NCBI GenBank assembly: GCA_951406725.2
Contig: OX597828.1
Coordinates: forward strand, 15,252,001-15,316,000
Origin: Octopus vulgaris
Lineage: Eukaryota
Reading direction: 5' to 3'
Length of the DNA: 64,000 nucleotides
The translations under genes and the position numbers were made by a program. Shown here in pieces: positions 3,592 through 44,307 of this stretch. Every line of letters starts with the position of its first letter. Positions within the stretch are counted from its first letter, which is position 1. A model generated the notes under the pieces. It ran no database searches. It saw only the letters and a program-made list of their open reading frames with translations, and had not been told where the DNA came from.

Positions 3592-3647
3592 TTCGTGTAA
3601 CGGGAAAGCAGAAACATAATATCCATCACTTATCATTTTCTTTATAC
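3592..3647 (-). CDS. ANO: Anoctamin exon, 56 nt, GIKKMISDGYYVSAFPLHE
   Basis: tctcttgcag| acceptor, GAA|gtaagt donor, phase 1-0, and the G.Y.xA(F/Y)PLH(D/E) motif. Confidence 0.94.
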
Positions 3648-6600
3648 CTGCAAGAGAGGAGATAATTACATTTTTTTAATATTTCTTCATAAGTGTATCA
3701 CATTTCATGTCTAGTTTATCATTTCATTTATTTCTATTTTTCTGCATTTTTATCTTTTATTTCTATTTAAACAGCAGTGGTTTGGTGGGATTAATTGAAA
3801 TAGTAAACACAATATTTTGCAGTAGTATTTAGTTACAGTTCCGTATATTCTGAGTTCAAATCCTGACAAAGTTTACTTTAATTTCATCTTTCATCAATCT
3901 GAGGAAGACGAAACAAAAATGGATAAAAAAAGATAAAGCTCTCTCCTGAATCATATAGACAGATAAAAGCTAGTTTCCTGGTCCATCACAGGAATACTCA
4001 TTTTTACCAGCTGTCGGGACAGGAGCAATATGAAATGAAATGTGTTCAAGAATACCTCATACTGCATAGTCCAGGAATTGAAACCATAATCTTAATGATG
4101 ATGAATCCAGCACCCTAACCACTAAGTCATGTACCTCCACTGGGAAGAAACAAAAACTGCTAAAAATAAGTACCAGACAAGTACTGGAATCAGTATACCA
4201 TATTTCCCAGCATGCAATTTGATGCATAAATTAAACATGAAGTGTAAACATTTAAATATCATCACTATCTTTCCAAGTCCTGCTGCATTTTACATGAAAT
4301 TTTTGGTCGTCTGAAATTGTATTGGTGCATAAATTGATTTGCCATTTTTGACTGTAAATTTTGGTCTGAAAAATTCAACTCATGCTAGAAAATAACAGTA
4401 ATAGACTTCTTCTTCTCCAAGAATTTGTGGACTCTTGCCTGTGGTATATATCATAGATTTATATTGAAGGGTAGTGAGGTAATTCAAACAGGAAAACACA
4501 AAGGATAAGATGCTTTTCAGTATTAGGTTACATCCCTCTTAGTTCTGCTTTTTATTCTTCTGAAGGCCATATTATAAGTACTAATTAAATAACATATTAT
4601 AAGTACTAATTAATAGCATCACTAGGTGAGACAAGCTGACACTGAATTAGCTTCGCTGACTGACAGATGACGGTCATTTAGAGAATGCATGGGCTAAGAC
4701 TACGTGCCTTCATTGGTCAGTTAAAGTTGAGACAGTGTCATGTGACAACTTGCTAGGGCTGCCTGCTGGAGCCTAGCAGCAGGTATTTAAAGGGAAAAAA
4801 TTTGACAAGTCAGTCAGTTGCCCGCTGACACTCGATGCTACATTGAAGAGGCCAAGGAACAGAAGAAAGAAGACATGCACCCAACACCAGAGCTGAAGAC
4901 ACCTCCGAAAGTAGGGGGGGGGGCTGCCACAACGGTAGAGGAGTAGGGGCCGAAACCAGATGTGGGTCCTCCTGATGATGTCTTGAGCTAACTGAATCCT
5001 ATAAAGGAGCTGTTGTGATAGAAGACCACAAAACACGTTTGAAATTCCTAGTGTTGAATTGGTAGTTTTAGATAGTATGAAAGCCTAATAGAATTTATCC
5101 CATCACTCAGCTTTATGAGAGCTATAGTAGAAGACACTTATCCAAGGTATCATGCAGTGGGATTGAACCCAAAACTATGTGGTTGGGAACTAAACTTCTT
5201 AACCACACAGCCACACCTGCACCATTACATTAAGAAGAAAGCAATGTAGATCTTACACACATCTCCTTCCTAACCTAATTGCTTCAGAAGCCAATGCAAT
5301 TACACCTGCTTGAATTCCACATAAATTAATCCACATATTTACCACAGGAATATGATTCTGCATCTTTATCTCCAAATGAAGTTCTTCTTAAAATGTAATC
5401 TACGATTCGAGTTCTCATGCCTTGACTGAAAATTGCTTCATGATTTTCTGGATATGCAAATCTGGAAAAATAAACATTAATTTAATAAAAAAAAAAACAG
5501 GAACATGTTTTTATTTTTTAAATCTATAAAAATATTAGATAACTATAAAGGTATATATATCTGTGTGCACATGCATATATGTGCATATAGGTTTGGGTAT
5601 AGTTATGGTATATATATATATATATATGTATGTATGACACTGAAGCTCTCCAAATTAAACACCAATATCTAAGCATTTTCCAAGCTTAATAAGATTATCT
5701 ATGAGGAAAACAACCAATATCAATGTAATCTCCACAGGCATAGGAATGGCTGTGTGGTAAGTAGCTTGTTTACCAACCACATGGTTCCAGGTTCAGTCCC
5801 ACTGCAACTGACTGACTTGGGCAAGTGTCTTCTACAATAGCCTCGGGTTGATCACAGTCTTGTGAGTAGGTTTGGTAGATGGAAACTGAAAGAAGCCCGT
5901 TGTATACATGTATATATATATATGTGTGTGTGTGTGTGTTTGTGTGTCTGTGTTTGTCCCCCCAACATCGCTTAACAACTGATGTTGGTGTGTTTACGTC
6001 ACCGTAACTTAGCGGCTCGGCAAAAGAGACCGATAGAATAAGTACTAAGCTTACAAAGAATACGTCCTGGGGTCGATTTGCTCGACTAAAGGTGGTGTTC
6101 CAGTATGGCCACAGTCAAATGACTGCAATAAGTAAAAGAGTAAAGAGAGTAAACCATGAATCTAGAAACACTTCCTATTTGGTGGTGTCAAGAGTGTTGA
6201 CAATATGCGTTGACAGTGTTGTGTAACTGGAATGTAAAAGGCACCTTTTGAATGTTGGGTTTCATGGGGGCAGTGACAAAGGACCAAGACCTCTGACTAT
6301 ATACCATGCTTGAGAAGACCAGTCAAGCCAAGTGAGATTGTAGTTGTGGGGCCAATGCTGTTGTTTCGTAACTGGCTCCTATACCAGTGGCATGTAAAAA
6401 ACACCCATTACACTCTTGGAGTGGTTGGCATTAGGAAGGGCATCCAGCCATAGAAATCATGCCAAATCAGACTGGAACCTGATGCAGCTCCCCAGCTTAC
6501 CAGTTTTGAGTCAAACCATCCAACCCATGCCAGCATGGAAAGCAGATGTTAAATGATAATAATGATGATGATGACTGTCTGGGAATCAATAGTAATCAGA

Positions 6601-9600: not shown

Positions 9601-12600
9601 GAAAGCTAATGGAAGCATACACATAAGGCAGACAATTGTATACAATTCATTATTCTCTTTTATATTATATATATTGAGGTGCTTCAGCATGGCCACAGCC
9701 CTTGAGCAGAAACTAATAAAAAAAACGATATATATATATATATATTATATAAGCCCTGAATACTTACAAATAATCTTTATCACGTGAGAACGGACATTTG
9801 TACTCTTTAGGTGTTGCTTTAAACACCTCTTTGTTGTAATCAAATGGAGATTTCAATTTCTCAGACAGTTGTTGCCATAATTTATGCAACTTCTTTATAG
9901 GTCCATCACCTTTTACGACCTGCTAAAAAAAAAAAAAAAGAAATAATCACAAAAAACAAAAATTTGTCAAAAAAACCCATTAATCCTTTTGTTACCAACT
10001 TATTTCTGTTGAAATAAACAGTCTTTGATTCAGTTAAAGTCTCTAAATAAGGAAGAGTTCAGTAATATAAGTTTGTTCATTATTAAGTTGATATTTGGAA
10101 CATAAATTAATGTGATGCTGTGTCTGGTAGAAGCCCAACATCTCCCTAAAGATCAAGAGTTGTCTTTTCTGCATGCTGGTTTTGCCTGTCCTCCTCTACA
10201 GTGCTGATGCCTGGACTATCCGCAAACAAGACCTGAACAAGTTTGAGGTGTTCCAAATGTGGTGTCTTTTGTTAGATCCTTGGGGGGTCTCTACGTGACT
10301 GAATCTCAAACAACAACATCCAAGAACAAGGCCAGCAGCAGCAGCCGACCGTTGAAGACCAAGTTTGGCAGTGCAGGCTACAGTGATTTGACACCGGCAG
10401 GATGAGCACCAGAAGACTACCACACCAACTTTTTGTCGTGACAGCAACCCATGCACTAAAGAATCCAGTGCAGCGTGCCAGAAAAGACACAAGTGAAATA
10501 AATTGAGGAAGACCTGAAGTCATAGTGTCTTGACTTTGAGCATGCTAAGACCAGCATCATAGATGGGAAAGCATGGAATAACAGCATCATAGATGGGAAA
10601 GCATGGAATAACAAAGTTTGTCATCCAGCGATACCCAGAGCGATGTATTGGTTGAGAAACAGCCTCCTCCTCTGGTCACCAGGTAGAGACTTTACTTACT
10701 GTTATGTTGTGTATGTACATGCTGGGTGTAAAACAGTAACCGATATGGTCGACCAACACTGTTCACTGCCTCTGATAGTTCACACAGTTTTTTATTTATT
10801 GAAATCCATGAGTCCACTTTCAGTCATGTAGGGGTGTAAAGGATTCTCCCATAACACTTAACATGAAATTGTAATGGAATGTTATAATTCACATCATTTT
10901 AAAACTGGAAGTTTGTATCATAGGACTGAGACTGGTCTCTGGTGAGTTTGCAGCAAAAGGAAGTATTGGTTGTAGGCATGTCTCAGTGGTTAAGAAGTTT
11001 GCCTTGCAAACCTATCGTTCTAGGTTCAATCTCACTGTATAGCACCTTTGACAAATGTTTTCCTATGATAGCCACAGGTTTATCCATGCCTTGTGAGTGG
11101 AGTTTGGTTAACATAGATTCTGTGAAAACTCGTGTGTGTGTGTTTGCGTATGTGTACTTGCATTTCTTTCACTAATATAGTGAAAAATATAAATATCATC
11201 AGGAAGACCGATGAAACTACTTTTAAATAAGAATATTTTGTATTTTTTCTGCCTAAGATGCACACACAAGGCCTTCTCACATTAATAATACAAGCAAATC
11301 ATGGGTTTGTAGCTGTTTCCTTTAATATTTTCTTTTATAGAATCTGTATTGATTAACCATCTTACTAACAATAACTCTGAACACCTTTTCAAACTCCAGC
11401 TATCTAATACCAGTGAACATGTTTACAAAGTCAGAAAACAGCACAGCCCCCATGACTTTCAGAAACATTTTTTCACGCTGAGAGTTGCTGAAGTATGGAA
11501 CAAACTGCTAGCATCAGTTGTTAGTTGTCGGAGCACTGCATCCTTTAAAACTTCCATGCTTCCTGAGATTCGCCAACACTACACCTGATTTTCTCCCCTC
11601 CATACACACGCAAGCATGTATCTGACTCTTACATTGTTCGGTTTCCAGACATTTGTACATTATTGCATATGCTTTATATGCACTTTTGACAAGTTGCAGT
11701 GCACCTGAGCACTGTATACAATAATTTCATTATTGTTTTATATATTATATTATAATTATATTATCATTAAGGCAGTGGGCTGGCAGAATCGTTAACATGT
11801 CAGGCAAAATGCTTAGCAGCATTTCATCCAACTTTATGTTTTGAATTCAAATTCCGCTGGGGTTGACTTTGCCTTTCATCGTTTCAGGGTTGATGAAATA
11901 AGTACCAGTTGAGCACTGGGAGCAATGTAGTTGACAAGCTCCCTCCCCACCAAAATACCAGGCCTTGTGCCTATAGACTAAAGGATTGTTATCATTTAAA
12001 ATAATAAATGCGCCCTTTTAAAGCTTAGCCAGGCTCATGGGCCCGGTTTCCTGGTTTCTATGGCGTATGTGTTCTCCAGCTGGATAGGACGCCAGTCCAT
12101 CGCAGTGTTACTCATTTTTGCCAGTTGAGTGGACTGGAGCAACGTGAAATGAAGTGTTTTGCTCAAGAACACAACGCGTCGCCCAGTCCAGGAATCGAAA
12201 CCACAATCTTATGATCATGATGCTGACACCCTAATCACTAAGCCACACGACTCCACATTGTTATCATTTACAATGTAATATATGTGAAGGCATATGGATT
12301 AGTAGTTATTGTATTTAGCTCACGATTCTAAGGTCATGAATTAGATTCCTGGGGCACATTCTGTCCTTCAGCAAGATACTTTATTTCACATTGCTCCAGC
12401 CCACTCAGCTGGCAAAAATGAGTTGTACCTGTAGTTCAATGGGCCAGCCTTGTTACATTGTGTCATATTGAATCTCCCTGAGTACTAGGGTATGTGTGTC
12501 TGTGGAGTGCTCAGCCACCTGCACATTGATTTCATGAACATGATATTAGGTTGATCAAATCAACTGTAACATATGTCATGACTGACAATGTACCTGACCC

Positions 12601-20516: not shown

Positions 20517-22641
20517 TATACATACATACAAGGATAACTAGATGTTCATACAGAGAGAGAGAGAGAGAGAGAGTAGGAAAAGAATGATAGAAACATTAAA
20601 ATGTCTGATGTCAAGTAGACCAGCATCAAATTAGCAATACAAAATAAGTGGCACCAAGATGGCAGTGGACAAAATGCCTCATAGCCACACCTGTAATCAA
20701 AATATGAAGTCAGAGTTGATTAAACTGGCCCTTCTAATCATCATCTACTCCATTCCATACCATTCTTTGACAGGTGTTTAGTGTATCAACCCTGGGAATG
20801 ATAAAAGACTAAGTCAACCTTGGTAAGACTTCCAGTCAGGATCTAAGAGGGACAAAGATAAATGCTGTGTAAAATAATCTGCCACTTCACCATTTCTACT
20901 CTAGAAGAAGGAAGAAAAGAAGGAGAAGAACTTTCTTTTTATCAACCATGCAGGGATGAAAGGCGAAGCTGACCTTGGTGAGATTTTGAACTCAAAATGC
21001 AATGAGCTACAACAAATACATTTTTTTATGATGCTATAAGGATTTTGCCTATAATAATAATAATAATAATAATAATAATTTTAAATCCTGGCACAAGGCC
21101 AGCAAACTAAAAGGATGGGTATAAGTCAATTACATCAACCCTAGTGCCCAGCTGGTACTTCTTTTAACCTTTAGCATGTTGCAGGCACATCACATTGCTG
21201 TATGAGTTTTCTCCTTTCTCAATGTGACACAGTGCACCTGCATTTACAGGGGAGAAAACTCGTATGGTGACATGATGTACCTAAGTATGCTAAAGGTTAA
21301 CTGACTCTGAAAAGAGGAAAGGCAAAATTTACTGCGGCAGTTTCTGAACTCAGAACATAAAGCCGGAAGAAATGCCTGTAAGCATTTCATCCTGCGTACT
21401 AATAATTCTGCCAGCATTGGAGGGGGAGGGTGTAAATGGATTACATCAACCCCAGTACTTGATTAGTACCTTATTTTATTGATCCTGAAAGGATGAAGGG
21501 CAAGGTTGATTTCAGCAGGATTTGAGCTCAGAATGTAAATAGCTGGAAGAAGTGCTGCTAAGCATTTTGTCCAATGGGCTAATGATTCTGCCAATGATGA
21601 TGATAATGATGATGATGATTTCTGACAATAATAATTACAATAATAATTAATAGTGGTTAGTAGTAAATATCTTTTTTAAAAATGTATTTATTAATGTCAT
21701 TCAGAACACACTCACCTTAGCCTACATGCAAAATAAAAAGATAAAAAGTCTCAAAATATAAAAAAAAACACTTCAGTTGTCTTCTAAAACAACAAAAAAG
21801 CAAAACAAACTTTCATGAAAATAATTTGCATACCACTTGCTCTGTTCCATCTGTATCCAGATAAAACACCTACATAAAAGCAACCTTTTGTTATTGAACT
21901 GAATATAAACATTTGGATGAAATGTCTGAACAATGAGGAATGATGGGAAAAACAACATGACTGAATTTTTAGATAGGTACATATCAGAAATTTGAAGACA
22001 GGGATTAAATTATTAATCCTTTAACATTATACTGCCCATATCCAGCTCAAATGTTCTAACTATATTATGTTCAGATCGCCTAGATCCAACCTCAAACATT
22101 TACCCTACAACGTTATTCTGAAAATAAGTAACCACATCATTGAAATCGCAAAGCAATGAGATAATGCAAGATTAATTTTAATTGATGTGAATAAGTATTA
22201 CATTTGACAGAGTAATCTGAATGCTGAAGGGTTAAATCAACCCTAGCACCTGACTGGTACTTAATTTTATCAATCCAAAAAGGATGGAAGGCAAAGTTGA
22301 TCTCAGGGTGATTTGAACTCAAGATGTAAAATAGTGAAACTTAATACCAAAGGCATTTTGTCTGGTGCTCTACCAATTCTGCTGATCAATGCCCATAATA
22401 ATATTTTCTACTATAGGCACAAGGCCTGAAATCTGGGGGGATGGGGTTAGTTGATGAGATCAACCCCAGTGTTCAACTGGTGCTTATTTTATCAACTCCG
22501 AAAGAATGTAAGGCAAAGTTGACCACCAGCAGAATTTGAACTCAGAATGTAGAAATGGACGAAATGCTGCGAAGCATTTTGTCTAGCATGCTAATGATTC
22601 TGCCAACTCAGTCTTCACTGCCTATTATTATTATTATTATT

Positions 22642-28519: not shown

Positions 28520-28893
28520 TATGACAGGCTTCTTTCAGTTTCTGTCTACCAAATCCACTCACAAGGCTTTGGTCGGCCCGAGGCTATAGCAGAAGACACT
28601 TGCCCAAGATGCCACGCAGTGGGACTGAACCCGGAACCATGTGGTTGGTTAGCAAGCTACTTACCACACAGCCACTCCTGCGCCTATATACATATATAAT
28701 AATAATAATATAAAAAATATATAAATATATAGGCGTAGTAGTGGCTGTGTGGTAAGTAGCTTGCTTATGAACCACATGGTTCCGAATTCATTCCCACTGC
28801 GTGGCACCTTGGGCAAATGTCTTCTACTATAGCCTTGGGCCGACCAAAGCCTTGTGAGAGGATTTGGTAGATGGAAACTGAAAGAAGCCCGTC

Positions 28894-28931
<38 letters not shown>

Positions 28932-31900
28932 CTATGTGTATATGTTTGTGTGTCTGTGTTTGTCCCCCCACCATCGCTTGACAACCGATGGTGGTGTGTT
29001 TACAACCCCGTAACTTAGCGGTTCGGCAACAGAGACCGATAGAATAAGTACTAGGCTTACAAAGAATAAGTCCTGGGGTCGATTTGCTTGACTAAAAAGG
29101 TGGTGCTCCAGCATGGCCACAGTCAAATGACTGAAACAAGTAAAAGAGTATATGCATATATACATACATATATGTACATACCTACATCTATATGTATATA
29201 TACATGCATATATGGGTACAGGACATAAAAAAAAAACGGTAAACACAATGAGAAACGGAAGCATAAAAACAAAAAACATAGAAACAAACTATTTTTCAAA
29301 CAACGAAAAAACAGAGTACAAGATATACAACATAAGGAATATTCCCCTTCTTCAGTTGTCCCTATTTCGTCTACTCCATCATCATCATCATCGTTTAACA
29401 TCCGCCTTCCATGCTAGCATGGGTTGGACGATGTGACTGAGGACTGGCGAACCAGATGGTTGCACCAGGCTCCAATCTTGATCTGGCAGAGTTTCTAGAG
29501 CTGGATGCCCTTCCTAACGCCAATATATATATATAAAGACTCTACATATTTTTAATATAAGGTTATATTGAGCACTTTTCATGTCTTTATATTACAAAAT
29601 AACAGTAAAGACCTCCTTTGGTCATGAATAAACACGGGATTGCATCTACAAACTTACCCTCTGAGGCACAAATGTGAGTAAGGTTGTTTATGGAAGACCA
29701 GCAGTCACTCGTGCATACCAACCACCCCACCCCACACCACTGATGTTGTCCAAAGGGAAGAGGCAAAGGCCAATACAGCTTGATACCAGTGAAATAAAGT
29801 ATCTTGCTCAAGATCACAACACAGCCTGGTCTGGGAATCGAACTCACTACCTCATGATTGTGAGCCCGATGCTAACCAGTGAGCCATGCGCCTTCACAAA
29901 ACAAGATAAACAAACAATATATACCATAATGACCAGAAGTTGTGAATATACACAGACATTATTACATGAATATGGAATGCAAACAATGAAAAGAATAGAC
30001 AGACTACTTAATGAGGCCCACCAAATGTCCAGTTCTTGTGATGTAGTGGCTTGTGTATCTTAATGACCCTGAGAGATATGCCAGTGATAGCAAGCTCTTG
30101 GTAGGGCCTCCATTGCTGGAGGATAGGGGTCAGACTAATATGGTAGAGGTGAAAATGGGTTTGCATAGGGCCAACACCCTTACTTAGAAAAGAGCAAAGC
30201 TAAAAAAGGATTGAAAATAATTCAAAACCAACAAGACCTAGGAGATGACATCCACATTTGATGGCCCGAAGTTAAGAACAGTAAAGAAAAGTTGTCAATG
30301 GTCTACACTCCATAGCAGGTGAAGGGCTTAAGTCAAGGAAATCACTCAATGAAACACATTTTAATTCCTTTCAGGGAATGTCTACTTAAAATACTCATTG
30401 AGGGTACAAAAATGCATGATAAAACATGTGCAATAGATGATTTGTTTCTATTTGAACAAAGATTACAAAACAATATAAAAGAAAAAAATGGTTCTAGATT
30501 AAAATTATGAAGATGTTAAATCTATATATTATCTTAGATAAATTTCAAACTAACTTCATAAGTTTAATGAAAGAACATTTCTTCATGCCTTAAACCCACA
30601 GACTGATGAGGGTAAAGCTTATTTTCAGATTTTCAAAGCATTTAAGCTCAGGATTCCCCACTGGATAGGTTGCCAGTCCATAGCAGTGTTAAGAGCCATT
30701 GGTAATCATTTTCAACAAAGTGTACTGGAGCAAAGTGATATGAAGTACCTTGCTTAATGATACAATGCATTGCCAAGTCTGAGAATCAAACCCATGATCT
30801 AATCATTATGAGCGTAACATCCTAACCACTAGACCAAATAAGGAAATAGAATTTTTTTTAAATGAACAAACTAAACCAAGATTTAAACATGGTCAAATTT
30901 TCTAAACATCTGTTCATATTTGCAGTGTACACAATGGCATATCAAATTTCTATGAAAAACAATACAAGGGTGACATTTACAGTGAAACCAATGCAGAAAC
31001 CACAAATAGCCAGATAGCCACAAAGCATAAAATCCATGAAAAACTTAAATGACACACCAAGAAAATAAAGAGAAAAGAAACTTAAGCCAACTGAAAAGCC
31101 ACTAAAACAATTTCAAAAACTCACCTAAAAGTAGACTCATTAATCCTTCCAAAAGTGATTTTGGTATAGTTAATAAGATATTAGGGTAAATGCTGACATA
31201 AACAGTCTACAAATTTTAATCTGTGGAACAACACTGCATCAGTTATTTCGTGTTCTATGATGTCAAAAAGAAAAGGAAATGCAGATATATCCAATATGCT
31301 ATCACTGGCTATTTTTGTTCCATAAACTAGGATCTTCTAAAATCTGTCCAATTCACCAGGACATACACAAATATTACACAAAGTGATCTGGAGATTATTA
31401 TGTATTTACAAAATGTCATAGTCTCCCATTGTATATCCAAACACAATCTAACCATCCACTAAATATTACTAAGCATGTACTTATATAAGCATTTGCAAGA
31501 GGATGAATGTACTGTTTCCCCAATGAAGCCCCACCCACCTTAACAAGGCCACTGTGTGCTACAATGAGGCACTAACATGTATTTCTTCAAAAAAGGAATG
31601 AAGAAGTCACCAACAATTACTACTAACTATCCTAAAAATATGAAGAGAAATATTTTATGGTATAACCCACCATATAACATCAATGTTAGTGTTGTTACTC
31701 TCCCAAATCAGAAGATACATCATGAGCAACCACAAATTTCCTTAGTTGTTGAACAAGAACAACATAACAATGAGCTGCATGATACATGTCAAGTGATAAG
31801 TAGAGCAACAATGCCAAAATATTACAAAGAGTAAAAGGATGATATTTAATTACTGTAATATAGATCTTTACAACCTAAAGAACAGATAAAACTAAAGTAA

Positions 31901-35609: not shown

Positions 35610-38600
35610 TACGTGTATATATTTTGGTAGCAAATTGAATTAAAACCAGCAGTCATGTTGTAAACAATATCAATTGCTCATATTCAGTGTATATATTTTG
35701 TTTGTTTCCTGGTTCACTATGGCGAACAAACAAAACACATACATTGAATATATGCAGTTGATAAAATATATTTGTTGTTTACAACATAAGAATTGAGAAA
35801 CTTCAAGCAACATGAAATAAATTGTTTTCAATGGTGAAACTCAAAGTAGATAAAACTATAAACAGCAATCTTTAAATATTGAGTTAAAAAAGCTCTTCTG
35901 ATGGAAAAAAAAAAGTTGAAAGCTGTCAATGGGACATGAACATATGAATTCATATCATTGGCTGACATGACAGATGTTTTACCACATGACCAAAGCAATC
36001 CCTCAAATTTGTTCATTTATTTTAGATTTTGTTCTTAACAGCAAGAATTGTACATTATTTATGATATATAAGAATTAAATAACTTCAAGAAATGTGAAAT
36101 AAGTTGTTTTTAATGGAGGAACTCGTTCTTTATACCAATATTTATATGCTACTTTTTATAGTATTATCTACATTGAGTTCCACATTAAAAATAATATATA
36201 CATATATATATACAAAAATTATAATTTAGGGTATCTAAGAGATACCACCACACTTGAAATAACAGTCAAAACTTGACTCTAAAAATACATTAAATTTCAG
36301 TGACTGAAACAGCTGTCATGCTTCAAACAGCTTACAAGGACGCTGCCATGAGCAAAACACAAGTTTAGGAGTGATTTCCATGCTTCAGGAGTGGTCACTT
36401 GAAGACCAACCTCATTCAGGACAACTGTCAACCTCCCAAATAAATGAATATTTAATGTGGTTTTAGAGTCAAGTTTTGACTGCTATTTCAAGCGTGGTGA
36501 CATCTCTTAGATACCCTAAATTATAATTTTAAATAATTATTACCTTTGAAAGGTTTTTATTCCCATGCTGGCCACCTGATAAGATCGGTATTTGAATATC
36601 GATCTTATCCTTATTTATATACACACACACACACACCAATGCTAGATGTCTAACAAGTTTTTACAATAAGCAAGATGTTTTGTTTTTTTTTAACTTTATC
36701 AAATAACAGGTACAAATAAAGAAGAGATAGAAGATGAAGTTATTACCTGCTCATCATACTGTTTAGCAAAATGTAGCAGTTCAGGAGTCTAAAAATTAAA
36801 AAGAAACAGAAATAATTTAATAAATGACTTTTGAAATACATCTCATTGATTAATGGACTGTCAATATATAAGACTAGCACTATGACTTGGCAACGCCGGG
36901 TCATAATGCTAGTGCACGCATATACAGCTGCGTGCGTGCGCACATACACGCGAGTATTGTCCAAATCTCTGACCAATCACATACAGCTAGCTGGCATTCA
37001 ATTGGTGTATCAAGTTTTGGGCATTTTGATTGGGTTTTGGATAGAAAATTCACAAAAAAGTCACTTCTATCGATTTTTTAATGGCGTTGTGGGGTGACTG
37101 GGGAAATGTAAAGATGTGCACGACCACCCTTGGACGGTTTTGAATGACCATAGAAAGTGCGAGGGGGCCCAGTTGATTAGATTGAACCCAGTATGCAACT
37201 GGGTCTTAATTTATCGACCCTGAAAGGATGAAAGGCAAAGTCGACTTTGGTGGAATTTGAACTCGAAATGTAGCAACAGACAAAATACCGCTAAGCATTT
37301 TGCCCAGTGTGCTAATGTTTCTGCCATCTTGCCACCTTAAAAATATTCTTTTCTACTCTAGGCACAAGGCTCAAAATTTTGGGGGAGGGGGCCAGTTGAT
37401 TAGATCAACCCCAGTATGCAACTGGGTCTTAATTTATCAACCCTGAAAGGATGAAAGGCAAAGTTGATCTCAGCAGAATTTGAACTCAGAACGTAAAGAC
37501 AGACGAAATACTGCTAAGCATTTCGCCCAGCATGCTAACATTTCTGCCAGCTTGCAGCCTTGTAACATTGAAAATATTGACAATAAAATTATTATATTTA
37601 CTTCTTTCATTGGAACTTTCAGTTTAAGTAGTTCTGCATAACGACATAAAACTTTGAATGGTGCATGGATTTTCATAAAATGGATTTCGGAATCACTCTG
37701 AAACAGTAAGAAAAACAGGATTTAAATTAAATGTCTGAATGTCTGAGATGAGTCTTATTATAATTATAATATAATACATCAACCCCAGAGTTCAACTGGT
37801 ACTTATTTTTTTTAATAACCCTGAAAGGATGAAAGGTAAAGTTGACCTTGGCAGAACTTGAACTCAGAATGTTTTGTCTGTCCTTACATTCTGAGTTCAA
37901 ATTCCACTGATGGTGATAGTGGTGGTGGGAGTGGTGGTGAAGGTGATAGTAATAGTGAGAGTGGCAGTAATGGTGAGAGTGGTGGTGACGGTGAGAGCGG
38001 TGGTGATGGTGATAGTGATGGTGATAGCAGTGGTAAGAGTGGTGGTGGTGAAAGTGGTGATGATGGTGAGAGGTGGTGATGGAGAGAGTGGTAGTGATGG
38101 AGAGAGTGGTGGTGATGGTTGTGATAGTGATGGTGATGATGGTGGTGTTGGTGATGGTGAGCGTGTTGGTGATGTGGTGGTTGTGATAGTGGTAGTGGTG
38201 ATGTTCATGATAGTGATGGTGATGATGGTAGTGTCGGTGATGGTGGTTGTGACAGTGTTGATAATGGTGGTGATGACTGTTGGTGATGATGGTGGTGATG
38301 ATGATGGTGATAATGGTGTTGGTGTCGGTAGTGGTGGTGATGGTAGTGATAGTGCCTGTAGTATTTAACAAGACATAACTTACGGTATCAACTTCAAGTT
38401 CTAGGAACTCTTTCTTCAAGTTATCATGAAAAGTCGAGCGAGCGTTCTGTGATTCTGTCATCTTCTTACTATGTCTATTCCATGCAATGATATAATCGAT
38501 CCGTCGCACTCCATCTTCAAAATATAATTTCCTTCCCTAAATAACAAAAGAAACAAAATATAAAAACTTTGAATGCTGCATGGATTTTCTTAAAATGTTC

Positions 38601-40856: not shown

Positions 40857-42470
40857 ACACACAGGTATTGCTTTCGATAAGAATCCGGTGTATATAAAAT
40901 GCAATAGTTTTTTTATGAAATCCAATAAATATAAAGGGTAATATCTTGTGTGAGATCCAGTGATTGTATCAGTTTATCAAATTATTCTATAATTGACAGA
41001 GACACTAGAGTGTTAACATGAACAAAGATAGGATATTACTGCTATAAGGAAAGTGGTTATGCTTGACAAGCACTAAAAGTACAGGTAGAAATTTCATAGG
41101 TGTACTTTCATTGTAAACAATAGACAGACAAGAGGTACAGGCAGGATGACAAGGAAAGTAGATTTTGTATGTGATAGATGAACAGGAGTAGTTTACAGCA
41201 AAAGTATGAGAAATATTGCTTCAAATTCTCAGAAGACTACTTAAAAGTAGTTGATAGCTTTGGTAGTTAGATGACCTAATTTAGCAGTGGGGATGGGTGC
41301 TCTGAAAGCATAGTTGCCAGAGTGAGAACAGGATGGAAAAAAATTCAGCACGCCCTTACGGCTACTGGTAACAAATTGTTTCACTATCAGAGCAAAGAAC
41401 ATATTATATGATGCAGTATGGTAGCAAGATATGTGTGTCTGTTTTGAATGTAGAGGTTGGAAGGAATTGAGGTGAGTATGTTCCACTGGATGTGTAGAAT
41501 TGCTGTTTCATGAACTATGGAGCACAAATGGTTTGAGAGAAAAAACCCCGGGTAAATGGGGAATCAGCTGTAGTGTGCAAAAAAGATAACAAAGCTGGTG
41601 TGGATATACAATGAGTACAGAAAGTACCACTTATACAAAGAGGCACCAGTTATATTGGCAGCAATAACATTGCATTTGTTCTATCTGTGTTCTGCCCGAT
41701 ATTCTGTATTGCTAACCATCACTCTGTCTACCTCTCTCCTCATATCACTTATCCATTATTATAAATTACTCCCTTTCCTTTACCCTCATCCATCTTCATT
41801 ACTTTCACTCCTCTCCCCACACGCTCTCTCTCTCTCTCTCCAGTCAGACACTTCTATCATTCTGGCTATTTTCCATTACTCTCCTTGCTATCACCCTCAG
41901 GTTCTGGTCCTCTACCATCACTCTCTCCTCAACCTGCTGGAACAAGACAAGTGTCTGGTGCTAGTGAACAAACACATAGGAACAACATAAAATAGAGAGA
42001 GAATTCTTTAGTCTTGCAAGGGACAAAGCAATCTCTCTAGTATTGGTGCCATAATAAAATGCATCCAGTACACTCCATAAAGTGGTTGGTGAGCAAGCAG
42101 AAACAACATACAGTAGAGAAGACTCTTTAGTCTCGCACAGAGCATGACCTCACTATTACTGGTGTTACAGTAAAATACACCCAACACAATCAGTAAAGCA
42201 ATGGGCAACAGGAAGGGCATCCAACCATAAAAAAAAATGCCAAAATGTAACAAGAGTGAAGTCTGATATCCAACACATCTAGGAGGGCAGTAACTCTTAA
42301 AAAGACCTGACTTGGTATATGACAATCTGTCCAACCAATACCAGCTTGCAAAAGCTGAAGTATAAATGATGCTGCTGCTGATGATGATGAGGAGGAGGAG
42401 GAAGTACAGATGATAAATATCTTACCTCAGCAGTTTCATCAAAGTCCTTATAAAAACTCAATGATTCCAT
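3592..42470 (-). CDS. ANO: Anoctamin/TMEM16-family protein, 5' part of a spliced gene (8 exons in window, 3' end outside window)
   Basis: Manual splicing at GT-AG sites gives a continuous 224-codon frame: MESLSFYKDFDETAE|GRKLYFEDGVRRIDYIIAW...KKEFLELEVDT|SDSEIHFMKIHAPFKVLCRYAELLKLKVPMKE|TPELLHFAKQYDEQ|AK|QVVKGDG...CPFSRDKDYL|FAYPE...RTRIVDYILRRT...SCG|IKKMISDGYYVSAFPLHE. Motif order matches the anoctamin N-terminal domain (ANO1-type YFRDGxRxxDxxLVY, FVKIHAPWxVLCxxAE, PFSREK, R.xIVxxIL.R, AAYPLHDG). The paralogue cannot be assigned by eye. Confidence 0.93.
5343..5461 (-). CDS. ANO: Anoctamin exon, 119 nt, FAYPENHEAIFSQGMRTRIVDYILRRTSFGDKDAESYSC
   Basis: ttttccag| acceptor, G|gtaaat donor, phase 2-1 fits both neighbours, and the R.RIVDYILRR motif. 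Confidence 0.94.
8414..8702. mobile_element. MITE with CAGGGCTGTGGAGT TIRs and internal GGAGTC repeats (hAT-like)
   Basis: 5' CAGGGCTGTGGAGT and 3' ACTCCACAGCCCTG, inserted in a (GT)-rich tract. Confidence 0.8.
9311..9606. repeat. (GAT)n plus purine-rich GA tract
   Basis: About 290 bp strongly G/A-skewed on the + strand. Confidence 0.85.
9768..9922 (-). CDS. ANO: Anoctamin exon, 155 nt (152 nt with the distal NAGNAG acceptor), QVVKGDG...CPFSRDKDY
   Basis: Poly-T tract plus tag|cag| acceptor, |gtaagt donor, phase 0-2, and the PFSRDK motif. Confidence 0.93.
10111..10850 (+). mobile_element. Decayed RTE-like LINE fragment interrupting a TTAA-type MITE
   Basis: LLYSADAWTIRKQDLNKFEVFQMWCL..ILGVS is an RTE-type post-RT motif. 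MITE halves lie at ~9980-10110 and ~10850-10960. Confidence 0.6.
11349..11760 (+). mobile_element. CR1-clade LINE 3' end, same family as 62522-62978
   Basis: The ORF remnant (KHFFTLRVAEVWNKL) and 3' UTR are clearly homologous to the 62.5 kb copy. Confidence 0.85.
13196..13537 (+). mobile_element. tRNA-derived CORE-like SINE family C (representative copy)
   Basis: A box TGGCTCAGTGG, B box GAGTTCAAATCC, core gtgttcttgagcaagacact. Related copies: ~12001-12256(-), 12286-12590(+), 29610-29897(-), 49825-50152(-), 58540-58800(+). Confidence 0.85.
14160..14343. mobile_element. hAT (Charlie-like) MITE
   Basis: TIRs CAGTGCTTTTCAA / TTGAAAACCATTG with an imperfect 8-bp TSD ttctagag / cactagag. Confidence 0.75.
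14440..14985 (-). mobile_element. RLE-type (R4/Dong/NeSL-like) non-LTR retrotransposon 3' relic
   Basis: Minus strand gives ILGDF..TDK, NK.DII.DK..CLLID..P.D, KY.PL..EI.RIW, VVPVLFG..GSV and LLLK.CLL.T.KIIRRVL, the restriction-like endonuclease C-terminus. Confidence 0.7.
17318..17507 (+). mobile_element. Short CR1-like LINE 3' end (second family)
   Basis: RVADPWNKLPDEIV...FKVSLD..W* followed by a short UTR and an (AACTT)n tail. Confidence 0.7.
17724..19012 (-). mobile_element. Degenerate mariner (Tc1/mariner) DNA transposon with a SINE inserted at ~17754-18160
   Basis: TA-bounded imperfect TIRs (TACAAGGT..GTTCCT.GA.T at both ends). The minus strand encodes WILHNDNAPCH, SPDLAP, FP.MKMQLKG and GYFKG transposase remnants with stops and frameshifts. 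Confidence 0.88.
21164..21300. mobile_element. Small palindromic TTAA-flanked (piggyBac-like) MITE inserted in a SINE
   Basis: TTAA-CCTTTAGCAT...ATGCTAAAGG-TTAA with internal complementarity (gagttttctcc / ggagaaaactc). Confidence 0.7.
21716..21721 (-). CDS. ANO: Candidate 6-nt microexon GCTAAG (Ala-Lys) of the anoctamin gene
   Basis: Minus strand reads ctttttatctttttattttgcatgtag|GCTAAG|gtgagt: long U tract, consensus donor, phase 0-0 inside a phase-0 intron. Confidence 0.65.
22624..22770. repeat. (ATT)n/(AAT)n/(GAT)n microsatellite
   Basis: Direct inspection. Similar AAT arrays occur at 35521-35606 and 44704-44942. Confidence 0.95.
23979..24384 (+). mobile_element. tRNA-derived SINE family A (representative full copy)
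   Basis: A box TGGCTG..TGG, B box GGTTCAGTCC, internal (TA/TG)n, tail ggcggtgctccagcatggcc..gactgaaacaagtaaaagag. Other copies: ~2660-3037(-), 5736-6151(+), 16377-16780(+), 17754-18160(-), 27140-27480(-), 27963-28684(-), 28731-29148(+), 39381-39765(-). Confidence 0.9.
25197..25456. mobile_element. hAT MITE
   Basis: TIRs CAGTGATTCTCAAC / GTTGAGAGCCACTG with a perfect 8-bp TSD CTCTACAT. Confidence 0.85.
28253..28489 (+). mobile_element. LINE ORF2 C-terminus and 3' tail (L2/CR1 group) inserted in a SINE microsatellite
   Basis: KLDLFLSGVPDEP..RAAASNSLMHQ* followed by the tail ggcggtgccccagcatggccacag..ctgaaac and (AATC)n. Confidence 0.7.
30990..32030 (+). mobile_element. Decayed, internally deleted Penelope-like retroelement (Naiad-like RT plus GIY-YIG remnants)
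   Basis: Fragments PKSRLINPSKSDFG, NLWNNTASVI, CRYIQYAI..YFCSI, YIQTQSNHP, KRNILWYNPPYNINV, YTGLT..FK and TTLSTYIWK occur in the expected order. Confidence 0.75.
32200..33170 (+). mobile_element. Highly decayed CR1/L2-group LINE reverse-transcriptase fragment
   Basis: Remnants AFNR..HG, LYDFLKG..Q...VN, (V)PQGT..G.LLF and S.IDD.KV with many frameshifts. Confidence 0.6.
33183..33337 (+). mobile_element. RTE-related 3' tail repeat family D (representative copy)
   Basis: tggcgttaggaagggcatccagc..catgctagcatggaaagcggacgttaaa(tga)n. Copies at ~460-670, 6380-6575, 7090-7275, 20160-20315(-), 29377-29524(-), 47550-47700, 63940-64000(-). Confidence 0.8.
36300..36437 (+). mobile_element. Mariner transposase N-terminal HTH fragment
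   Basis: Translates TETAVMLQTAYKDAAMSKTQV*E*F..FRSG..EDQPHSGQLSTS, resembling the mariner HTH/GRP region. Confidence 0.7.
36747..36788 (-). CDS. ANO: Anoctamin short exon, 42 nt, TPELLHFAKQYDEQ
   Basis: Strong U-rich tract ttctttttaatttttag|, donor CAG|gtaata, phase 0-0, no stops. It falls in the variable linker, so there is no motif support. Confidence 0.72.
36873..37160 (-). mobile_element. Helitron-like element copy, inverted relative to 49119-49423
   Basis: About 200 bp closely match the reverse complement of 49197-49400. Terminal hairpin ACTAGCACTATGAC..GGC aac GCCGGGTCATAATGCTAGT. Confidence 0.55.
37602..37697 (-). CDS. ANO: Anoctamin exon, 96 nt, SDSEIHFMKIHAPFKVLCRYAELLKLKVPMKE
   Basis: tttcag| acceptor, |gtaaat donor, phase 0-0, and the KIHAP..VLC.YAE.LKLK.P motif. 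Confidence 0.95.
37908..38357. repeat. Degenerate (GGT/GAT)n trinucleotide tract in the 686-bp intron
   Basis: Direct inspection. It produces the spurious His/Thr- and Gly/Asp-rich ORFs. Confidence 0.9.
38384..38536 (-). CDS. ANO: Anoctamin exon, 153 nt, GRKLYFEDGVRRIDYIIAW...ELEVDT
   Basis: Pyrimidine tract plus ttag| acceptor, |gtaagt donor, phase 0-0, and the hallmark FxDGxRRIDY motif. Confidence 0.95.
38560..38640 (-). pseudogene. Decayed partial duplicate of the 37602-37697 exon and its acceptor
   Basis: Aligns to 37646-37712 (aaactttgaatg-tgcatggattttc-taaaatg...gaatcact-tgaaaca) with an ~11-nt insertion and the acceptor CAG changed to CAA. Confidence 0.75.
38797..39026. mobile_element. 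TTAA-flanked MITE family
   Basis: TTAA-TCCTTTCATTAC...GTAACAAAAGGG-TTAA. Related copies lie at ~2012-2150 and ~9980-10960. A second TTAA family occurs at ~22013-22235 and ~42625-42770. Confidence 0.65.
40381..40454 (+). ncRNA. Type I hammerhead-ribozyme-like motif (Penelope-associated type) in the right arm of a palindrome
   Basis: GATAA-CTGAAGA-GATG..CATCC-GAAA-CTCAGAG-TT-TTATC. Both core boxes are intact, stem I is GATAA/TTATC, stem III is short and palindromic, and the cleavage triplet is GUU. Stem II needs a 1-nt bulge. Confidence 0.55.
40546..40863. repeat. Compound (TA)n/(CA)n microsatellite
   Basis: Direct inspection. A mirror-type (TG/TA)n tract at ~40120-40249 lies on the other side of the palindrome. 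Confidence 0.95.
42426..42470 (-). CDS. ANO: Anoctamin probable first coding exon (exon 42426-42484, ATG at 42470): MESLSFYKDFDETAE
   Basis: Acceptor tttcag| at 42485 and donor GAG|gtaag at 42425. Ends in phase 0 and joins the GRKLYFEDG exon in frame. The start codon assignment is an inference. Confidence 0.72.
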
Positions 42471-43043
42471 ACTGTCCAAAAATTCTGAAATAAACAGATA
42501 TTATGAATTTAAAATCCTTTTCAGAAGAAAATTTCACGGAAATATGTAACATAAATGTGGGTAAGATTAACTTTGTTATTGTAATTTATTTTTCCTACAC
42601 TGATGAGTCAAAAGAATCTTATTATAACCCTTAGCATTCTGATTTCTATATCAAATGCAATACTTATTTATTCACATTGTTTTGAATTAATCATGCATTA
42701 CCTTGTTGATCTGAGATTTTGATGATGTGATTGCTTATTTTTAGAATAACATTAAAGCATAGGTGATATTAATCAAATTAATATTATTCAATTTTTCATT
42801 TTAAATTATTTTAAATGATATCTATATATGTATGTATGTATATGTTTGTGTGTCTGTGTATGGCCCCCCCAACATCGCTTAACAACTGATGCTGGTGTGT
42901 TTACGTCCCCGTAACTTAGTGGTTTGGCAAAAGAGACCAATAGAATAAGTACTAGGCTTACAAAGAATAAGTCCTGGGGTCAATTTGCTTGACTACAGGT
43001 GGTGCTCCAGCATGGCCACAGTCAAATGATTGAAACAAATAAA

Positions 43044-43084
<41 letters not shown>

Positions 43085-44307
43085 ACCTCATGGAGACAAT
43101 AGCAAATGACTAAGGCCTTTGGCAATATGCTGTGCTTGAGAAGGAAGATCCATCAAGCCAAATGAAATTGTAGTCATGGCAGATACTGTGCCACACAACT
43201 GGTACCCATTATATTCTCAGAGTGGTTGGCATTAGGAAGGGCATCCAGCCATAGAAATCATACCAAACCAGACAAGAGCCTGGTGGAGCCTCTTAGCTTA
43301 CAAGGCAAATGTAAGATGTATTACAGAACAAATGTTTTAATAAATGTTTGATGTGACTTGATAAATGTTTTTCATCAGCTTACCAATATTATCAGTGTAT
43401 GAGGACATAGGTTGGCTAACATCAAGCAGCTCATGGTCAGTACTTGAACTCATTTTGTCTGTTCTGGATTCAGAAAAGAAAGAGAATTATGAATAAATAA
43501 GTAAACAATAGTAACAATAAAATAAGAAGAACAAGAAAAAGAAGAACCCTTTCTGTTATGGGTACAAGGTTGGAAATTTTGTTGGGGAAAGGGTTAGTTG
43601 ATTACATCAACCTTGGTACTTGAACTGGTACTTATTGGCCCTGAAAAGTGGAAAAGCAAAATTGGCCTCAGCAGAATAAAGTTGCATTTAGCAGAATTTG
43701 AACCAAGACCGTAATGCTGGAAGAAATGTCACTAAGATTTTATATGGCATGGGAATGATTCTGACAGCTTGCCACTTTAACAAGAACAACAATAGCAGCA
43801 GTGGTAGCAGTGTCAGCCATTCAAGAATTTGGACCTGGAGATCTCCATTTCCAGCAACTTCGAGGGCCACCTCTCAGTGGTGTCGGGCATCAACGAAGAG
43901 CCCTCGACTACAACAAGACGACCAAAGTTTTTTTTTTCCAAGGTCTGGGGTCTCCCGGCCCTAAGCCCTAGACCATCACCTAATCACCCTTACCCATCTT
44001 GTTGCTTAACAACAACAACAACAACAACGGCAGCAGCAGCATCAACAACAACAACACTCTCTACTGTAGGCACAAGGCCTGAAATTTTGTGGGAGGGGGG
44101 CCAGTTGATTAGATCGACCCAGTATGTAACTGGTACTTAATTTATCAACCCCTGAAAGGATAAAAGGCAAAGTTGACCTCAGTGGAATTTGAACTCAGAA
44201 TGCAGTGACAGGCAAAATACTGCTAAGCATTTCGCATGGCATGCTAATTATTCTGCTAGCTAACAATTCTGCCAACAATAATAATAATAATAATAATAAT
44301 ATGACAG

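Follow-up and report, generated by a model that had tools for sequence, protein, structure and literature searches.

Does the segment GCTAAG, which lies on the minus strand within a large interval of an Octopus vulgaris anoctamin gene, serve as an optional exon of six bases, and if so, what controls it and what would two additional residues do to the protein? The segment follows a U-rich tract and TGCATGTAG and is followed by GTGAGT; read as an exon it encodes Ala-Lys. The window, which means here the whole stretch of 64,000 nucleotides from contig OX597828.1 that was analyzed, had been given an initial annotation in which this arrangement was described as a tissue-regulated two-residue switch, and the sequence was found as described there.

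The host gene and its optional segments

The translation of the exon downstream of the candidate matches an Octopus anoctamin cluster, and an O. vulgaris protein model maps exon by exon across the window and the adjoining DNA. PF04547, PF16178, and the TMEM16 fold were all found in the host protein, which assigns it to the anoctamin/TMEM16 family. The six calcium-binding residues (N650, E654, E702, E705, E734, and D738 in mouse) are all identical in the octopus alignment. The octopus protein scores 695 bits to ANO1 and 609 bits to ANO6, a gap that leaves undecided whether it functions as a channel or a scramblase. RNA contigs from all four runs examined at the downstream exon, out of 20, showed splicing from position 9768 to the exon at 5343..5461. 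At the upstream junction these contigs yielded no letters, their alignments breaking off at the T-run, and their lengths do not reveal the isoform; no read or contig containing the six bases was observed in O. vulgaris.

The interval between the exons at 36788-36747 and 9922-9768 is 26,824 nt, and both exons break between codons at the junction. The frame-preserving length in a phase-0 intron was thus correctly read at the outset. The length of ~27 kb also held, although the interval does not consist of intron alone: an annotated 36-nt exon lies within it at 21869-21834. This cassette ends 112 nt upstream of GCTAAG. Its acceptor, which has a UGC at -13, scores -0.6, far below that of every other exon of the gene. 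The last six bases of this acceptor are identical to those of the microexon acceptor.

What had been described as a two-residue switch is one member of a stack made up of the 36-nt exon, the 6-nt exon, and an optional Gln, the other two members having been missed. For the same reason, the single junction proposed for RNA-seq mapping is blind to forms that contain the 36-nt exon or lack the Gln. A protein of the decapod cluster (P0014) begins with a few residues that resemble read-through of the downstream acceptor and end in Gln, which suggests that CAG is the older of the tandem acceptors. The features are listed in Table 1.

Table 1. Features of the anoctamin gene in the window, in the order of transcription
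Feature	Positions	Strand	Basis
Anoctamin coding exon	43384..43463	minus	model mapping, splice scores
Anoctamin coding exon	42426..42484	minus	model mapping, splice scores
Anoctamin coding exon	38384..38536	minus	model mapping, splice scores
96-nt exon, likely equivalent to mouse Ano2 exon 4	37602..37697	minus	alignment to mouse TMEM16A reaching residue 180
Upstream exon, 42 nt, 14 residues, predicted helix	36747..36788	minus	model mapping, AlphaFold
Annotated 36-nt cassette exon, 12 residues	21834..21869	minus	5 of 9 O. vulgaris/sinensis models
112-nt intron from 36-nt cassette to 6-nt microexon, U-rich	21722..21833	minus	sequence
Microexon 3' splice site TGCATGTAG, UGC at -9 within UGCAUG, UAG end	21722..21730	minus	sequence
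6-nt candidate microexon, Ala-Lys	21716..21721	minus	phase 0 on both sides; splice-site scores; O. bimaculoides Ala-Glu insert
Microexon donor GTGAGT, score 9.2	21710..21715	minus	gene-derived matrix
Downstream exon, tandem acceptor at start, predicted amphipathic helix	9768..9922	minus	models, AlphaFold
Optional Gln, tandem (NAGNAG) acceptor	9920..9922	minus	models with and without Gln
Anoctamin coding exon	5343..5461	minus	RNA contigs, model mapping, splice scores
Anoctamin coding exon	3592..3647	minus	model mapping, splice scores

Strength of the candidate splice sites

Splice sites were scored with matrices derived from the 23 acceptors and 22 donors of the anoctamin gene itself, whose exon borders were set automatically and may be off in one or two cases. 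The microexon acceptor scored 9.8, as compared with 7.7-17.4 for the real acceptors of the gene, and the donor, previously called consensus, scored within the real range of 2.2-11.6. GCTAAG has the size (3-27 nt), the AG/GT borders, and the preserved frame of a cassette microexon.

When all 79 sites of the form AG-6nt-GT in the 26,824-nt interval were ranked, GCTAAG came first with 18.9 bits, whereas the runner-up reached 9.2. In a background of 400 kb, taken as 20 stretches on both strands, none of 1,098 such sites reached 18.9 and three reached 15, which gives an expectation of ~0.2 sites scoring at least 15 per interval of equal size. A search for frame-preserving candidates of 3-27 nt at real-site thresholds returned two on the sense strand and two on the antisense strand of 144 kb, both antisense candidates containing stops, and one in the 400-kb background. 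Within the limits of the repeat search, the microexon DNA is single-copy and non-repeat. The exact motif string was not enriched genome-wide, with five matches as compared with four for the reversed control.

Several weaker candidates were also observed. Two stop-free, frame-preserving ones lie on the minus strand of the same interval, at 29891 (15 nt, 6.3/6.1) and 22983 (3 nt, 7.6/6.4), and an intron of the membrane region has on its minus strand (L006, ~2746) another of 24 nt that preserves the frame and scores at threshold (7.7/6.4); no protein model supports any of the three. A dispersed repeat with a strong donor-like site produces many false short-exon candidates (window positions 28683 and 60515; L005:9963; L010:8155).

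A two-residue insert at the same junction in Octopus bimaculoides

Two of the three O. bimaculoides models span the junction (UniRef A0A0L8GUI3 and A0A0L8GUA4), and their sole difference is an Ala-Glu located exactly there; A0A0L8GUI3 without Ala-Glu is identical to A0A0L8GUA4. This pair bears out the proposal of an optional two-residue exon. The codons for Ala-Glu are one base change away from GCTAAG. A random 6-mer lies within one base of these codons with a probability of 0.016, and the interval contains six such six-base sites. GCTAAG is the only one of them with usable splice sites (9.8/9.2), the acceptors of the other five scoring 1.4 or lower. Since the O. bimaculoides model has a matching two-residue insert at the same place, the octopus 6-nt exon is likely real, and the Ala-Glu insert, judged from one automatic protein model, is likely orthologous to GCTAAG. 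Conservation in this relative is thus observed at the protein level, in one of two junction-spanning models. Taken together, the signals around the segment and the insert in the relative make it highly probable that GCTAAG is a genuine optional microexon.

It would be rather improbable for GCTAAG to be a chance pseudo-exon, with the Ala-Glu of O. bimaculoides owed either to an alternative acceptor that lies six bases upstream or to an artefact of annotation. In favor of a pseudo-exon, a single model carries the insert, ~0.2 sites scoring at least 15 are expected per interval, and the downstream exon already possesses a tandem acceptor. Against it, the coincidence of the best-scoring site with the Ala-Glu insert has a probability of ~0.001-0.003 when roughly combined. 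A tandem-acceptor origin would moreover require the main acceptor to end in GAG, which none of the 23 acceptors of the gene does, and the U tract to differ at several positions, where the microexon needs one base change.

Ala-Lys itself was found in none of the nine O. vulgaris/sinensis models, in agreement with the initial expectation that standard annotation would overlook the exon. The 36-nt cassette was present in five of these nine and in neither of the two junction-spanning O. bimaculoides models. Such a distribution is what one would see if the exon were genuine in O. bimaculoides and had decayed or fallen silent in O. vulgaris, with the 36-nt exon taking its place. We regard this as very unlikely, since both O. 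vulgaris splice sites are intact and score within the range of used sites, and six-base exons are often missed by short-read aligners.

Beyond O. bimaculoides no two-residue insert was detected: one of the 453 compared proteins has it, and it was found neither in the one Argonauta protein nor in the three junction-spanning proteins of the decapod cluster. A search of the 50% clusters yielded nothing further for this junction. The O. vulgaris and O. bimaculoides proteins are 95% identical. The swap of Lys for Glu, and thus of charge, between species so close counts against a residue-specific role and suggests that length matters more than charge. RNA editing (A to G) was considered as a source of the Lys/Glu difference and set aside, since automatic protein models normally reflect the genomic DNA sequence.

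Length variation at the junction in other animals

Twenty-two protein clusters, hand-picked among 120 listed, with at most 15 members of each compared and close species mixed within clusters, were examined at this junction. Among the members listed, the length between the same two anchors varied in 13 of the 22 clusters, that is, in 10 of 13 molluscan clusters and in three of nine others (Tribolium, Palaemon, and eel ANO3). In the automatic isoform models of these animals, the inserts are unrelated in sequence, at least five residues long, often combined, and in frame; judging from these protein models, they are presumably encoded by exons. In six clusters, molluscs among them, some isoforms lack the segment corresponding to the 42-nt exon. 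The eel ANO3 models (P0081, P0437-P0442) contain one of two unrelated segments at the same site, an arrangement resembling mutually exclusive exons.

Possible regulation of the microexon

A profile search of the genome gave a match to PF15230 above the cut-off, and a second eMIC exon was located 24 kb further on. This second exon completes the eMIC motif; the motif used to find it had one match in the genome and none in the control. The Srrm234-like gene thus has an eMIC domain split over two exons 24 kb apart (C25:37317492-37317626 and 37341779); at distances of up to 20 kb no second eMIC exon was found. If the reading frame of the first eMIC exon is continued into the intron, a stop follows after a few codons, which would yield a form lacking the eMIC. 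The acceptor of the second eMIC exon has a UGC at -5.

The UGC noted just upstream of the microexon 3' splice site is indeed present. Both cassettes of the anoctamin gene have a UGC no more than 20 nt from the AG, as compared with two of the 23 other acceptors (Fisher p 0.02) and 36 of 232 background acceptor-like sites. In flies, ion channels are over-represented among the eMIC targets, which have a UGC near the acceptor; further marks described for these targets are long AG-free zones, CUAAY branch points, UCUC tracts, and weak sites (PMC8797185). In human, 74-79% of eMIC targets were reported to have the UGC, which is not an absolute requirement (bioRxiv 10.1101/2024.09.17.613571). The octopus microexon lacks all four of the other fly marks, namely the long AG-free zone, the CURAY branch point, the UCUC-rich tract, and weak splice sites. 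The zone free of AG extends over 26 nt, less than at most other acceptors of the gene. The 112-nt intron between the cassettes contains neither a CURAY branch point nor UCUC, and has additional UGCs at -81 and -109 and AGs at -30, -51, -61, -64, and -90. The 36-nt cassette may be a better eMIC candidate than the 6-nt microexon.

It is possible, though we consider it the less probable course, that the exon is real but neither eMIC-dependent nor neural. It would then be a tolerated spacer whose inclusion is low in all tissues, takes place in muscle, or is set by Rbfox at the UGCAUG. The ordinary strength of the splice sites, the missing eMIC marks, the unconserved charge of the insert, and the acceptance of 0-36 unrelated residues at this site in other animals would all fit; the presence of UGC beside both cassette acceptors and few others argues against it. 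As for Rbfox, the UGCAUG pointed out in the initial annotation is there, and Rbfox bound upstream of microexons can raise their inclusion according to a review (PMC12221596). The Rbfox reading is nevertheless weak because TGCATG is common in this region: 97 sense and 72 antisense copies were counted in 144 kb, where 29 are expected, the sense count being more than three times the expectation from base composition. Moreover, no UGCAUG occurs within 300 nt downstream of the microexon, and a search for Fox-1_C gave no match, which does not imply that the domain is absent.

Primers from a study of the O. vulgaris gastric ganglion (PMC5736919) match the host anoctamin gene. Neural control of the microexon through the eMIC is plausible, and our analysis of the acceptor and the genomic eMIC domain inclines us slightly towards it.

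Position in the protein and predicted effect

The junction is located inside the N-terminal domain PF16178 assigned by Pfam. The switch proposed for an N-terminal linker is thus N-terminal as stated, but it lies in a folded domain and not in a free linker. The predicted fold matches TMEM16A and TMEM16F. In the AlphaFold model with the insert, Ala-Glu (146-147) is at the end of helix 133-148, which is followed by a five-residue hinge and helix 154-173, whereas the model without the insert has helix 133-147 and a four-residue hinge, the confidence at the hinge being only 62-69 (AlphaFold's own scale). Amphipathic character (moment 0.60) and a basic net charge (+4) mark the helix after the hinge.

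The junction aligns to residues ~181-188 of mouse TMEM16A, directly after segment 161-179, which has been described as an assembly segment (PMC5089938) and which, in the structure, does not take part in the dimer interface (PMC5470873). A role for the microexon at the dimer interface was considered and rejected because the N-terminal domains make no contact with each other in the mouse structure, as reported in PMC5470873. An Ano2 exon 4 primer (PMC10327929) translates to a peptide matching the exon at 37697-37602.

We suppose that the six-base exon would be skipped by default and that eMIC binding at the UGC would help the acceptor to be recognized. Inclusion would lengthen the end of one helix together with the hinge before the basic amphipathic helix by two residues, and the 36-nt exon, the 6-nt exon, and the Gln together could provide several settable hinge lengths. 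From the models, the two-residue insert would tune the protein slightly by altering the length of the hinge; the prediction is a modest shift, not an on/off switch, affecting calcium sensitivity, kinetics, or delivery to the surface.

The complete reading is that GCTAAG is a real optional exon adding Ala-Lys to the anoctamin N-terminal domain, likely common to O. bimaculoides in the form of Ala-Glu, and that its inclusion in neurons is probably brought about by Srrm234 in its eMIC form. We hold it to be somewhat better supported than not. A far more speculative extension, which we think doubtful, would make the intron that follows the Ano2-exon-4-like exon a hotspot across bilaterians, each lineage having built there its own set of short phase-0 cassettes. 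The octopus stack would then be an eMIC-driven, neuron-specific dial for the length of the hinge by which the basic amphipathic helix is placed; in ganglia and sensory neurons it would tune a calcium-activated channel, through a site of regulation undescribed for anoctamins.

By itself, an insert of two residues that differs in charge from one close species to another amounts to a modest finding. The anoctamin named as a nociception candidate in O. vulgaris is presumably the product of the host gene, and its isoforms are for that reason worth knowing before expression and recording. The candidacy is given in PMC12919962.

Comparison with known systems

The literature search found no paper pairing an anoctamin with a microexon, none combining eMIC, microexon, and mollusc, and none on the octopus exon or the O. 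bimaculoides model pair; the supplements of a preprint that covers O. bimaculoides (bioRxiv 10.64898/2026.09.05.749416) may list the exon. The candidate thus offers a concrete target for a cephalopod eMIC microexon programme, of which none was found described, and draws attention to a spot in the anoctamin N-terminus that splicing varies in many animals and whose effect seems unstudied.

The octopus exon resembles the neural microexons controlled by eMIC/SRRM3-4 factors (fly Srrm234 and human) in its size within 3-27 nt, its preserved frame, the UGC between U tract and AG, the ion-channel host, and the eMIC domain in the genome. It differs from the fly microexons in lacking the long AG-free zone, CURAY, UCUC, and weak sites, and its neural inclusion and dependence on the eMIC are predictions. 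With the O. bimaculoides pair it shares the two-residue difference at the junction, although that pair has Ala-Glu in place of Ala-Lys and consists of automatic models. The optional inserts of other molluscs, Tribolium, Palaemon, and eel ANO3 are at the same position, in frame, and variously combined; those inserts are unrelated and at least five residues long, whereas the octopus insert has two residues and was found within Octopus alone.

Segment c of vertebrate ANO1 (EAVK) and exon 14 of ANO2 (ERSQ) are likewise tiny in-frame cassettes of calcium-activated anoctamins, and they change calcium sensitivity and kinetics (PMC8835819, PMC10327929). They sit within the first intracellular loop, whereas the octopus exon is in the N-terminal domain, so that EAVK was rightly placed in a different region by the initial annotation. 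The octopus intron at the place of segment c contains no microexon candidate with scores of acceptor 2/donor 3 or better. This intron (L005:869 to L006:8341, minus strand) has the weakest donor of the gene, 2.2.

With mouse Ano2 exon 4 and TMEM16A 161-179 the octopus exon shares an N-terminal region, the octopus stack beginning right after the likely counterpart exon. Ano2 exon 4 has been reported to be alternatively spliced and required for current (PMC3664704). When mouse Ano2 exon 4 is skipped, a part of the conserved core is lost, whereas the octopus cassettes add residues after the core.
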